From: a virus
Taxonomy: Duplodnaviria; Caudoviricetes
Strand: one strand, 5' to 3'
Virus record (IMG/VR): IMGVR_UViG_3300032332_001787
Coordinates: 1 to 64,000 of that record
DNA length: 64,000 nucleotides
Both the position numbers and the translations under genes were made by a program. Numbering within the stretch: position 1 is the stretch's first letter; the number at the start of each line of letters is the position of its first letter. The notes under the pieces are model-generated. The model did no database searches, was not told the origin of the DNA, and worked only from the letters and a program-made list of their open reading frames with translations. Below are positions 47,433 through 51,887 of the stretch, piece after piece.

Positions 47433-47437
47433 TTGTT

Positions 47438-47512
47438 GGGGGTGTAGCTTAATCAGGTTAGAGCGTCGGCTTGTCAAGCCGAAGGTTGCGGGTTCAAGTC
47501 CCGCCACTCTCG
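47438..47512 (+). tRNA. trnD: tRNA-Asp(GTC)
   Basis: GGGGGTG/CACTCTC, anticodon loop TTGTCAA, T-loop TTCAAGT. Confidence 0.92.
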
Positions 47513-47528
47513 TTTATTATCTGAGTCG

Positions 47529-48116
47529 CTATTGATAGAAATGTTCTTCTCTGTGACAATTACTGCATAAGATAATACATTTATCTATTTCAGTCTTAAT
47601 ATCTTCTAGAGAAGCATTTTTATCTCTGAGCATAGCACCTATTCCATCTGTCTTATTGTTTTCTGTATGATGGAAATCTAAACATTCTGGTGACGACAAT
47701 CCGCATTTATGACATGAAGATTTTTGCTTTAGTTCTAATACATACCTAGCTTTTTTAGTAAGATATTTATATGTATTAGTATGTTCTTTTCTATGGCAGT
47801 TAGAGCAAATAACGTCGCATTTATTTATTTCTGCTAAAACTATTTCGGTTGAATATCCATGACGAATAAGATTGCATACTGTATCTTTTTTTGTATCTGG
47901 ATTTCTATGGTGAAAATCTAGACAATAGAATCTAGTCTCTCCACAGATTTTGCATGGGTTATTTTCTTTGAGGTTTTGAACTAGAGTTCTGTTATGATCT
48001 TTAGTTTTGTTCTTATATCTCTGTTTATATACTCTAACTCTGTCAATATTTTTATTAGCCCATTTAGTATTATTGGTTATTTTAGCTTTGCTTGTTTTAT
48101 TCTTTTTCATGGGCAT
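47529..48116 (-). CDS. Endonuclease with two tandem HNH domains
   Basis: CKICG..LDFHH..CDVICSNCHRKEH and CHKCG..LDFHH..CIILCSNCHREEH. Confidence 0.8.
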   Translation of the reverse strand: MPMKKNKTSKAKITNNTKWANKNIDRVRVYKQRYKNKTKDHNRTLVQNLKENNPCKICGETRFYCLDFHHRNPDTKKDTVCNLIRHGYSTEIVLAEINKCDVICSNCHRKEHTNTYKYLTKKARYVLELKQKSSCHKCGLSSPECLDFHHTENNKTDGIGAMLRDKNASLEDIKTEIDKCIILCSNCHREEHFYQ

Positions 48117-49613: not shown

Positions 49614-50599
49614 TCATGGCAAAGTATTATATCAAATGTGGAACACTAGAACTAATTTACTCTTGCAATAAATGTCCAAGGGATGCTGCAATGGATGCTA
49701 TATGGGAAACGAATGAAAATGATACACTAGATGAACACTTCTATATAGATGAGCGTGGGTATAGAGACTATGTTACTGCTGATGGACATACTTGTGTATT
49801 AAATACTGGTCATATTCTCATAGACGCAGGATGGAGTATTGAATAATGTGGACAAAAATAGACGATAAAAAAGTAAGACACTTATGGGAATGTGCTGATT
49901 GTGATAATCTAGTTTATGTAGAGCCTTGGTTTTATTCAGAAAACGGCGAACCTTTTTGTACAACGTGCGAGAAGGATATGGAGTATATTCGAACAGAAGT
50001 AGATATGTAGCCTTTTCCGCAAACCCTTACTGCATAAGCACTTAGGGCGAGCGGGGGCGGCCGAATTTGACGTAAGTCCTTAGCCCGCAACACTTTAGAG
50101 CAAATTCAAAAATCTTCTAAAGTTTCCCTACTGGATTAGTCGATAATATTGGTATGGAAACGAAGCAAGAAACCAAAAGGAATGGACAGATGATCCAGTG
50201 GGTAGGGATTCTGATTACTCTGGTGGGTTTGGCCTATACGGGAATCAAAGATTATCAAAAAGGTGATATAAAATTCCCTCCCATGCCTCAGAAACCGGCC
50301 TTGACAAAGGTAGTTTATCCGGTACAATACTGTCTGATGGCTTACGATCCTAATGTTGACAAAGTTTTTTATCTACACGAAAACGGACAATGGCATGATT
50401 ACGCTCCACAACAACGACGATATGAGACCACGCCGCAACCATATCAAACTCAAGGTGCGACCGCAGTGGCAGGTTCCTACGGGTCACAAGGAACACCGAC
50501 ATACCGTTATGGACAATCGCCCCAAGCGTCAACGAACCCGATCCGCTGAAAACCGCAGGGCTTGCGAGAACGGAGACTATTGACTATAATAGTAGGATT

Positions 50600-50672
50600 G
50601 CCGATGTAACTCAGTTGGTAGAGTAGCAGTTTTGTAAACTGCCTGTCATCAGTTCGATTCTGATCATCGGCT
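50600..50672 (+). tRNA. trnT: tRNA-Thr(TGT)
   Basis: GCCGATG/CATCGGC, anticodon loop TTTGTAA. Confidence 0.92.
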
Positions 50673-50673
50673 C

Positions 50674-50939
50674 TCGGGAATGGTGTAACGGTAGCACAAG
50701 TGACTTTAATAAACTGGAGTGCGTCAAGAGAAATTTTGATGTAGAACCTCTCAAATTCGGGGAACGCTTAACTGCCAATCCCGAGCCAAGCCGGAAACGG
50801 AAGGTGTAACGACTTGACGGGAGGCACCTAAAACTTTTAGTCATGGTGATGGTAAAGTCTAGACTACAAACCGTAAGGGTAGCGAAAGCTATAGTAGTAA
50901 GTGGATCACTTTGTCTAGGTTCAAATCCTAGTTCCCGAA
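50674..50939 (+). tRNA. trnQ: tRNA-Gln(TTG) interrupted by a group I intron
   Basis: Exons 50674-50706 and 50902-50939 join to give TCGGGAA/TTCCCGA, anticodon loop CTT^TGGA and T-arm CTAGG-TTCAAAT-CCTAG. Confidence 0.88.
50707..50901 (+). mobile_element. Group I self-splicing intron, 195 nt, IC3-like, no internal ORF
   Basis: P/Q/R/S-like elements CTCAAATTCGGGGAA, AATCCCGAGCCAA, GGTGTAACGACTTGACGG and GGTAAAGTCT; 5' exon ends in U and the intron ends in G. Confidence 0.88.
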
Positions 50940-51631
50940 TTTAGTTTTTGCCAATAGCCTCTGCGATTAGTTAATTGGATTCCATATGCTTTAGCCCATT
51001 TACGAACAGAGTTATCTGTTACGTTATATTTTTTAGCTATAATACTCATAGGTATAGTAGCAATTAATTTTTCTAATTCCTCTTTAGATGGTCTTTCTAC
51101 TTTTCTGAGCCATGGTTTAGAAGTTTGTTTGATTTTAATCGGTTTTATCTTTTTGAATCTTTTACCAGCATAGGTATCTGTTTGGCTATGACAATTAGGA
51201 CACAAAAAACATAAATTAGATAATCTATTATCATTAGGAATTCCATTTTTGTGTTCTAGTTGCAAAGATATTTTTTTATTATTCCAGACATCTTTTAATC
51301 CGCATGACTCACACTGATATGGTATTAATTTATTTTGTATAATTCTTTTTTTTATACCACCCCTATTTGTTGTTCCGTTCTCGCAAAAAAATTGATCATC
51401 AGTTTTCTTTGGTGAAAATCTTTTACCTTTATTAGAGCCTCTACCAAGCGAAATGTGAGACATATCTATATTCTCATCTTTAGCTCGTCTTTTTACAGTA
51501 TGGTGGTTTCCTCCTTTATTATTTAAACCAAAATGACGTAGTATATCTGCTATTGTGTTTGATCTACAAACTAGAGTTTGGAATTCTTCTGTAGAAATTG
51601 ACCATATAATACTTCTTTTTTTTCTATTCAT
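50921..51631 (-). CDS. Free-standing HNH homing endonuclease
   Basis: CESCG...LQLEHKNGIPNDNRLSNLCFLCPNCHSQT; N- and C-terminal HTH-like segments; stop overlaps the tRNA-Gln 3' end. Confidence 0.85.
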   Translation of the reverse strand: MNRKKRSIIWSISTEEFQTLVCRSNTIADILRHFGLNNKGGNHHTVKRRAKDENIDMSHISLGRGSNKGKRFSPKKTDDQFFCENGTTNRGGIKKRIIQNKLIPYQCESCGLKDVWNNKKISLQLEHKNGIPNDNRLSNLCFLCPNCHSQTDTYAGKRFKKIKPIKIKQTSKPWLRKVERPSKEELEKLIATIPMSIIAKKYNVTDNSVRKWAKAYGIQLTNRRGYWQKLNSGTRI

Positions 51632-51720
51632 GTTTAACTCCTTATTGGTACCATATATTATACACCATTCTGGTGTCTTGACAAGTTGCTTTATTCTGTT
51701 ATAATAGCATAAATCGACGG

Positions 51721-51792
51721 TGTCCGATAGCTCAACGGTAGAGTAGGCGGCTGTTAACCGCTTGGTTCTAGGTTCGAATCCTAGTCGGACAG
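51721..51792 (+). tRNA. trnN: tRNA-Asn(GTT)
   Basis: TGTCCGA/TCGGACA, anticodon loop CTGTTAA. Confidence 0.92.
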
Positions 51793-51797
51793 CTTAG

Positions 51798-51887
51798 GGA
51801 AGAGTGGCAGAGTGGTCATAATGCACTGGTTTACTAAACCAGCGATCTCTTAACCGGGGTCCGTGGGTTCGAATCCCACCTCTTCCG
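51798..51887 (+). tRNA. trnS: tRNA-Ser(ACT) with long variable arm
   Basis: GGAAGAG/CTCTTCC, discriminator G, stem CTGGT-TTACTAA-ACCAG. Confidence 0.85.

Follow-up and report, generated by a model that had tools for sequence, protein, structure and literature searches.

A transfer RNA (tRNA) array in IMG/VR virus record IMGVR_UViG_3300032332_001787 (Duplodnaviria; Caudoviricetes) contains a tRNA-Gln(UUG) gene that is split by a group I intron and faces a free-standing HNH endonuclease gene on the opposite strand. The DNA analyzed here, which we call the window, is the first 64 kb (64,000 nucleotides [nt]) of this record, a complete phage genome of 230,097 bp with a GC content of 34.7%. The split gene lies directly 3' of a tRNA-Thr gene (50600-50673) and is the only glutamine tRNA gene in the 230-kb genome, so that splicing would be needed for tRNA-Gln function. 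Joined in silico, the two exons form a 71-nt cloverleaf that ARAGORN identifies as tRNA-Gln(ttg), with a 7-nt anticodon loop (CUU-UGGA) divided at U34|U35 and an anticodon stem (AGUGA/UCACU) that can form across the intron. With respect to possible charging with glutamine by the host, the spliced tRNA has U1-A72, U35, and G36 but carries A73.

Standard ARAGORN and Rfam at its gathering threshold made no call at this locus. In terms of annotation, standard tRNA finders overlook 2 of the 12 tRNA genes of this phage, namely, its sole tRNA-Gln and its sole Leu-type tRNA. When introns were permitted, ARAGORN reported a "tRNA-Stop(tta)" with an intron at the canonical 37/38 position, a placement that we rejected: with a cut at U34|U35, and with no other, U precedes the 5' splice site, G precedes the 3' splice site, and the loop has 7 nt.

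A preliminary description of this DNA, made from the letters alone, had placed a 195-nt group I intron lacking an open reading frame (ORF) between U34 and U35 of tRNA-Gln(UUG) and a convergent free-standing HNH gene over the tRNA 3' end. These assignments stand: removal of the insert leaves a clean 71-nt tRNA, the insert takes on a full group I fold with covariation over 31 relatives, and the overlap amounts to 19 nt. The features of the locus are listed in the table.

Table. Coordinates of the features at the split tRNA-Gln locus, numbered from the first nucleotide of the window
Feature	Position	Strand	Basis or remark
tRNA-Gln(UUG) exon 1, positions 1-34, last base U34	50674-50706	+	In silico splice, ARAGORN
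tRNA-Gln(UUG) exon 2, U35, G36 ... A73	50902-50939	+	In silico splice, ARAGORN
ORF-less group I intron, 195 nt, terminal G 50901	50707-50901	+	RF00028, own model R1, covariation
Internal guide sequence GGAGU	50716-50720	+	P1 with exon ACUU and intron U1
Catalytic core P3-P8	50747-50860	+	Covariation, 31 relatives
P3	50747-52/50819-24	+	
P4	50757-62/50779-84	+	
P6	50785-87/50803-05	+	
P7	50809,50811-15/50855-60	+	Bulged C50810
P8	50825-28/50845-48	+	
P9 domain	50863-50898	+	Outer stem 50863-67/50894-98 around two hairpins, second with GAAA loop (50884-87)
Free-standing HNH endonuclease gene, 236 amino acids (aa), convergent with tRNA-Gln	50921-51631	-	PHROG, homologues, AlphaFold
HNH N-terminal helical module, ~aa 5-60	51452-51619	-	Helices 8-52 with predicted local distance difference test (pLDDT) score >90; conserved W10, S24, L31, N42
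HNH beta-beta-alpha-metal core, ~aa 104-152	51176-51322	-	CxxC...CxxC zinc site
HNH C-terminal three-helix, helix-turn-helix (HTH)-like module, ~aa 170-218	50978-51124	-	Helices 183-216; weak HTH_23/BrkDBD matches
Back-to-back sigma-70-like promoters (predicted)	51657-51705	both	Overlapping -35 boxes
Stretch resembling relative L095 rather than close relative L049 (tRNA-Thr, split tRNA-Gln, HNH, tRNA-Asn, part of tRNA-Ser)	~50576-51880		Sliding identity

Fold and identity of the intron

More than 40 related introns were gathered from public viral and metagenomic contigs, and 31 of them were aligned. We counted base pairs on a hand-drawn P1-P9 structure that includes the P3/P7 pseudoknot, using as controls pairing partners slid by 1 to 3 columns and 500 shuffles. 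Over the 31 introns, 97.1% of cells were paired in the hand-drawn fold, compared with 29 to 43% in the slid controls, and compensatory changes on both sides were present in 34 of 53 pairs (10 to 16 in the slid controls); none of the 500 shuffles reached the observed pairing or covariation values. Each core helix was 98 to 100% paired, with compensatory changes in P3, P4, P5, P6, P7, and P8, including a replacement of A-U by G-C in P7 (columns 147/201) in seven sequences. The candidate G-binding pair, beside the bulged base of P7 (columns 149/200), is an invariant G-C. The outer stem of P9 changes from ACUAC/GUAGU to ACCAC/GUGGU in nine sequences, the inner hairpins covary too, and the 3'-terminal UAAG is invariant in 31 sequences. 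GAAA loops are found in L2 and in the P9 hairpin, and every helix is intact in the window copy.

At the 5' end, A31-C32-U33-U34 of the exon and the first intron U (50703-50707) pair with the guide sequence to form P1, with a U34 (50706)·G50717 wobble at the splice site. The P1 pairs are retained in 93% of cells and the splice-site U·G in 29 of 30 sequences, and the helix covaries with exon position 32, where C32-G becomes U32-A in three sequences. RNAalifold had proposed a pairing of exon GACU with the 3' strand of P7; it was replaced by the hand-drawn P1 and the P7 pseudoknot, both of which covary.

The Rfam group I model RF00028 matches positions 50697-50882 with 44.9 bits (E value of 2.7e-10 in a local search and 2.9e-11 genome-wide), which is below its curated gathering score of 50. 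We did not take this shortfall as disqualifying, since the Rfam group I seed contains no bacterial introns, according to the text of a preprint by Williams (2020; doi 10.1101/2020.01.27.920355). Our own intron model, R1, gave 209 bits at the locus as its sole match in the window, which itself belongs to the R1 training set. G50882, where the Rfam alignment stops, was not accepted as the 3' splice site, since the exon restarts at 50902 and the additional 19 nt fold into a P9 hairpin that is conserved and covaries; the exons place the true terminal G at 50901. With a length of 195 nt the intron has no room for an endonuclease gene, and no plausible ORF was found within it. On the basis of fold and covariation, the insert is almost certainly a genuine group I intron.

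Kinship with phage tRNA-Leu(UAA) introns

The nearest GenBank relative of the intron is a 75% identical intron in LR756501, a 735-kb uncultured phage, where it occupies the classic U34|A35 site of tRNA-Leu(UAA). A second copy is present in the window's own genome, as a 202-nt intron at 86.5 kb in a short-armed tRNA(UAA). This gene (G000 C1 ~86473-86747; L003 1478-1752) is the sole Leu-type tRNA of the phage, with a UAA anticodon, a short variable arm, a 3-bp D stem, and a spliced length of 73 nt; no HNH gene lies near its intron, and the short-armed UAA tRNA was found again in many related contigs. Among 44 viral contigs with the same intron 3' end, the host gene is mostly tRNA-Leu(UAA), with one tRNA-Gln, one Ser(UGA)-like tRNA, and one Met(CAU)-like tRNA. 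In L025 and L037, the same intron family apparently splits tRNA-Ser(UGA) after U34 and tRNA-Met(CAU) after U33, and in L013, L018, and L031 exon 2 begins with CAAAACC, possibly belonging to Leu-CAA. In another contig (L248, 2046-2523), tRNA-Leu(UAA) and tRNA-Gln(UUG) lie in tandem, each split by an intron, with the convergent HNH gene after them.

Of the 21 Gln introns, 20 cluster together in the intron tree (support, 84/97), nested among phage Leu(UAA) introns. Two placements depart from this pattern: the Gln intron of L041 stands apart next to a Leu intron, and one Leu intron falls within the Gln group. The topology implies a minimum of one switch from Leu(UAA) to Gln(UUG), perhaps two or three, and the guide-binding sequence ACUU| is common to the two hosts. 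As far as these sequence relationships reveal, the intron is a descendant of phage tRNA-Leu(UAA) introns, and the locus documents a host-gene switch of a group I intron from Leu-UAA to Gln-UUG. A jump between the two tRNA genes inside this phage is unsupported, because the window intron groups with the Gln introns of other phages (94% identity to that of L153, among its closest) and not with the Leu intron of its own genome. A bacterial metagenome-assembled genome (L133), the sole match to a narrow pattern, gave no R1 match at an E value of ≤0.001 and was set aside, leaving no bacterial example from that pattern.

Known bacterial relatives share much with the window intron. The tRNA-Leu(UAA) introns (Leu.3Ug) sit at the same anticodon-loop position, after U34 (CUU|), and the Leu.3Ug seed sequences of the Williams preprint have the same ~200-nt compactness and the same ...GAAAG...UAAG 3' end. 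In both, P1 is short and the anticodon stem is able to hold the exons together. The window intron differs in its host gene, tRNA-Gln(UUG) with CUU|UGGA, and in residing in a phage genome; under the nomenclature of Williams, it would be named Gln.3Ug. The preliminary description had called it IC3-like, which seems a reasonable label in view of its kinship to tRNA-Leu(UAA) introns, the one ground on which it was assessed, and which rests on the classification quoted in the Williams preprint.

In a 2014 review, all phage group I introns then known were in protein-coding genes, despite the many tRNA genes of phages (PMC3984707). The text of the Williams preprint describes a survey of bacterial genomes only, which raised the number of bacterial tRNA intron settings from 4 to 21 (doi 10.1101/2020.01.27.920355). 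"Gln" is absent from its text, seed alignment, and model file, its Table 1, an image, lying outside this comparison. Our literature search yielded no published group I intron in tRNA-Gln and no phage tRNA group I intron of any kind; within the literature searched, this insertion site is an uncommon one, as it had appeared at first sight. Both the intron lineage and the type of partnership are known; the host gene and the kind of genome in which the intron resides are new.

The HNH gene and the mobile cassette

Lacking its own stop codon, the HNH ORF continues for 19 nt on the strand opposite the tRNA-Gln 3' end (...NSGTRI*). It matches PHROG 10822 "HNH endonuclease" (E value of 1.3e-41) and has 664 homologues at an E value of ≤1e-30; its Pfam HNH score of 16.5 bits is under the 21.4-bit cutoff. 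An AlphaFold model built with 68 sequences has a mean pLDDT of 86 and resolves three modules, followed by a disordered tail. Within the core, C107, C110, H127, N139, C144, C147, and H148 are invariant in the 68 sequences. A sequence search of the PDB with the HNH protein returned no match, and Foldseek against the PDB gave weak matches, all to HNH cores, among them those of McrA and Cap5. The low GC content of the gene was rejected as a sign of foreign origin; the genome as a whole has a GC content of 34.7%, and the contrast is due to the GC-rich tRNA genes.

Upstream of the HNH gene, the predicted promoter on the minus strand (TTGTCA-16-TATAAT) matches 11 of 12 consensus positions and points toward HNH, while that on the plus strand (TTGACA-16-TATAAT with TG) matches all 12 and points toward tRNA-Asn and the tRNAs beyond. 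In HNH-less relatives, ~3 to 14 nt separate tRNA-Gln from tRNA-Asn. The promoter pair travels with the HNH module, and the outward promoter would restore transcription of the downstream tRNAs.

To place the locus in its genomic background, we compared 79 syntenic loci from related ~200- to 240-kb phages, fetched by an upstream marker ORF. An uninterrupted tRNA-Gln lies between tRNA-Thr and tRNA-Asn in 76 of the 79, and both elements, the intron with 83% nt identity and the convergent HNH gene with 74% aa identity, are present in a single locus, L095. The phage of L095 is a distant relative, with a marker protein 61% identical to that of the window. Outside the stretch of ~1.3 kb delimited in the table, the window is ~90% identical to L049; inside it, identity to L095 reaches 83 to 96% in the Thr, Gln, and intron segments. 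The flanks of L095, in turn, are 95 to 100% identical to those of intron-less L096. The tRNA-Gln exons of the window and L095 are identical at 71 of 71 positions; none of the 37 other variants, even in the phages closest to the window, has this sequence, and an exact search of viral contigs found no intron-less allele of the window's tRNA-Gln anticodon arm. The occurrence of one cassette in two phage backgrounds, together with converted flanks, is the signature of a mobile, homing cassette, and the intron and HNH gene have very probably spread by gene conversion among related phages.

The HNH module is polymorphic at a given locus, being present in the window and absent from L049 and likewise present in L129 and absent from L141. 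The latter two contigs are identical at 389 of 400 upstream positions and have 97% identical introns, and they differ cleanly by 732 bp comprising the HNH gene and its promoter pair, which indicates that this module is separable from the intron. We had considered L141 and L152 as remnants of HNH deletion but withdrew this reading because the HNH ORF continues into any sequence downstream of it and the shared 14 to 22 nt may just as well represent the original spacer.

Proposed collaborative homing and its alternatives

The preliminary description had proposed that intron and HNH gene form a collaborative homing pair and had suggested a survey of relatives for co-occurrence, in which the two turn out not to be distributed independently. 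Starting from the intron, 27 further loci with the Gln intron were found, some being the same contig in two collections; 15 of them have a convergent orthologous HNH gene (60 to 97% identity), and a few show other arrangements. A search that starts from the HNH gene is less prone to bias. Of 82 family loci in IMG/VR, 81 lie inside tRNA arrays, and the immediate neighbor is tRNA-Gln(UUG) at 29 of 66 nonidentical loci, followed by Trp (9 loci) and Gly (7 loci). All four IMG/VR orthologues with at least 64% identity face a split tRNA-Gln, as do six of seven full-length orthologues (51 to 79%) from a large protein collection, or 10 of 11 combined, and every full-length orthologue adjoining a tRNA-Gln in this survey faces a split gene. 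The seven short forms of 162 to 172 aa (L253, L254, L255, L188, L206/207, L242, and L106), which lack the C-terminal HTH-like module when aligned with the long forms, all face an uninterrupted tRNA-Gln that overlaps their 3' end. The convergent HNH genes linked to tRNA-Gln are grouped in a single supported clade of the HNH tree, where long forms with intron and short forms without intron are interspersed, and two further short forms fall in other clades. Such a coupling of the full-length HNH form to the intron would be expected under collaborative homing, because a nuclease active against the uninterrupted anticodon arm could be carried only by a genome whose site is split.

We favor such collaborative homing, in which the intron protects the carrier of the HNH gene, and assign it a probability of about 0.5. 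A compact group I ribozyme of tRNA-Leu(UAA)-intron descent interrupts the phage's only tRNA-Gln(UUG) and would most likely splice itself from the pre-tRNA, keeping the tRNA usable. The putative HNH homing endonuclease, presumably expressed from its own predicted promoter, belongs to a clade found in phage tRNA arrays, with a preference for abutting tRNA-Gln(UUG). During mixed infections, it would most likely cut the uninterrupted tRNA-Gln alleles of related phages, and repair off the carrier would copy HNH, intron, and flanking tRNA sequence into the recipient. The carrier itself would be immune because the intron is proposed to split the recognition site of the nuclease. A bolder version can be put forward only tentatively, the odds being somewhat against it: this may be the first case of collaborative homing that targets a tRNA gene, with the C-terminal HTH reading the DNA of the intact tRNA-Gln(UUG) anticodon arm, the intron acting as the immunity determinant, lineages toggling repeatedly between full-length HNH with intron and truncated HNH without it, and the intron having been inserted ectopically from Leu(UAA) into Gln at ACUU|. 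If true, nature would have recorded in that insertion the move of a group I intron from one host gene to another.

Several observations weigh against collaborative homing and qualify the support that it draws from the nonindependent distribution and from the presence of one cassette in two backgrounds. Six loci have the intron only, despite enough flanking sequence (L138, L141, L139, L148, L152, and L155), and one full-length HNH relative (L251, 1301-2103; 55% identity) is convergent with and overlaps a tRNA-Thr, with no tRNA-Gln there. More-distant full-length members of the family (35 to 48% identity) lie codirectionally beside uninterrupted tRNA-Gln genes, so that the intron is no general requirement for carrying such an HNH gene. 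The correlation of long and short forms with the intron has limited phylogenetic replication, with at least two changes and an unresolved basal branching. Only 38 to 52 bp separate the intron from the HNH insertion point, and simple linkage could therefore account for much of the co-occurrence without a functional tie. The tRNA-Gln allele of the cassette differs from resident alleles at many positions, and these differences could give immunity without the intron. The tRNA array also looks like a general hot spot for free-standing endonuclease genes.

Much of this would be expected if two independent selfish elements were merely linked, with the HNH enzyme cutting in or beside tRNA-Gln away from the intron site and being tolerated through target differences, and with the intron as a passenger of co-conversion. 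The distinct exon allele of the cassette and the distant HNH genes beside uninterrupted tRNA-Gln fit this alternative, as do the unrelated zinc-finger/HNH ORFs in Gln-Asn gaps next to uninterrupted tRNA-Gln, a second HNH gene after tRNA-Asp in the window, the 732-bp presence/absence of the HNH module in a 97%-identical intron background, and the tRNA-Leu(UAA) intron of the same genome, which has no adjoining HNH gene. Yet it leaves unexplained why the forms without the C-terminal module, from several lineages, are exactly those facing an uninterrupted tRNA-Gln and why no full-length convergent orthologue does so, and we consider it rather unlikely. An intron that spread mainly as a defensive allele, by immunizing its carrier, with or without an HNH gene of its own, against the HNH enzymes of competing phages, is in our judgment improbable. 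The position of tRNA-Gln(UUG) as the commonest neighbor of the HNH family and the persistence of several intron-only alleles with intact intron structure speak for it; the small minority of syntenic relatives with the intron argues against a strong general advantage, and this explanation overlaps with collaborative homing and is not separable from it here. It is very improbable that the tRNA-Gln is dead and that the insert is what remains of a decaying intron without splicing activity: the Rfam score slightly below threshold would agree with decay, but the core helices of the window copy are all intact and have undergone compensatory evolution over relatives, the exons form a normal cloverleaf, and the gene is the phage's only tRNA-Gln, in a slot where 76 relatives retain one.

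Precedents exist for several parts of collaborative homing as proposed here. A cyanobacterial intron-encoded homing endonuclease recognizes the DNA of the tRNA anticodon region at the point where a group I intron inserts; it differs from the window HNH in being encoded inside the intron, in belonging to another nuclease family, PD-(D/E)XK, and in not being of phage origin. Free-standing homing endonucleases are known from phage tRNA clusters, namely, SegB in T4 and F-TflI/II/IV in T5, the T5 enzymes being of the HNH type. As in the window, these genes lie between phage tRNA genes, but no intron is known to be involved in those systems. Weak DNA matches of the locus include one labeled F-TflIV, with similarity to the window HNH confined to the catalytic core (for SegB, see PMC13096335). 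In the trans-homing of T4 mobE/I-TevIII, a free-standing HNH enzyme mobilizes a neighboring intron through co-conversion, much as proposed here, although the T4 nrdB intron, unlike the window intron, has a defunct endonuclease gene of its own and a protein-coding host (PMC2790892).

Collaborative homing itself has been described for two phage systems, according to the 2014 review (PMC3984707). The psbA intron of cyanophage S-PM2 with F-CphI (PMC3984707, PMC6083498) and the DNA polymerase intron of the T7-like phage PhiI with its free-standing HNH gene (PMC3984707) have a patchy joint distribution among relatives, as does the window pair. In these two pairs, the introns are in protein-coding genes and cleavage at the insertion site was demonstrated experimentally, whereas the window intron is in a tRNA gene and its nuclease target is a predicted one; furthermore, the window HNH ORF physically overlaps the tRNA 3' end, unlike in either pair. 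The uncultured lake phages with this locus offer a well-populated, polymorphic natural system, in which loci carry the intron and the HNH gene together, the intron by itself, a truncated HNH gene with no intron, or neither element, and these natural variants make the collaborative-homing route to mobile introns, including shielding by the intron, testable.

Other small ORFs and introns were seen in the course of the comparison. The second free-standing nuclease ORF of the window (195 aa; 47529-48116, minus strand) is also convergent, directly after tRNA-Asp (47437-47513), and contains two tandem CxxC...FHH...CSNCHRxEH motifs, so that it looks like a duplicated HNH-type endonuclease. In L058, L066, L074, L077, L097, L098, L080, and L115, the Gln-Asn or neighboring gaps hold unrelated small ORFs with zinc-ribbon/HTH motifs. 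The tRNA-Ser of the window (51798-51887) has an ACU anticodon, with A34, in a slot where relatives have ACU or GCU. Finally, in the uncultured deep-sea Autographiviridae phage KT997847 (L002), a marine podovirus, the capsid gene is annotated as two pieces, and two group I introns with a core resembling that of the window intron were detected at 1446-1626 and 2155-2335 (78 and 77 bits), one lying between the annotated capsid pieces and the other overlapping the end of the second piece.

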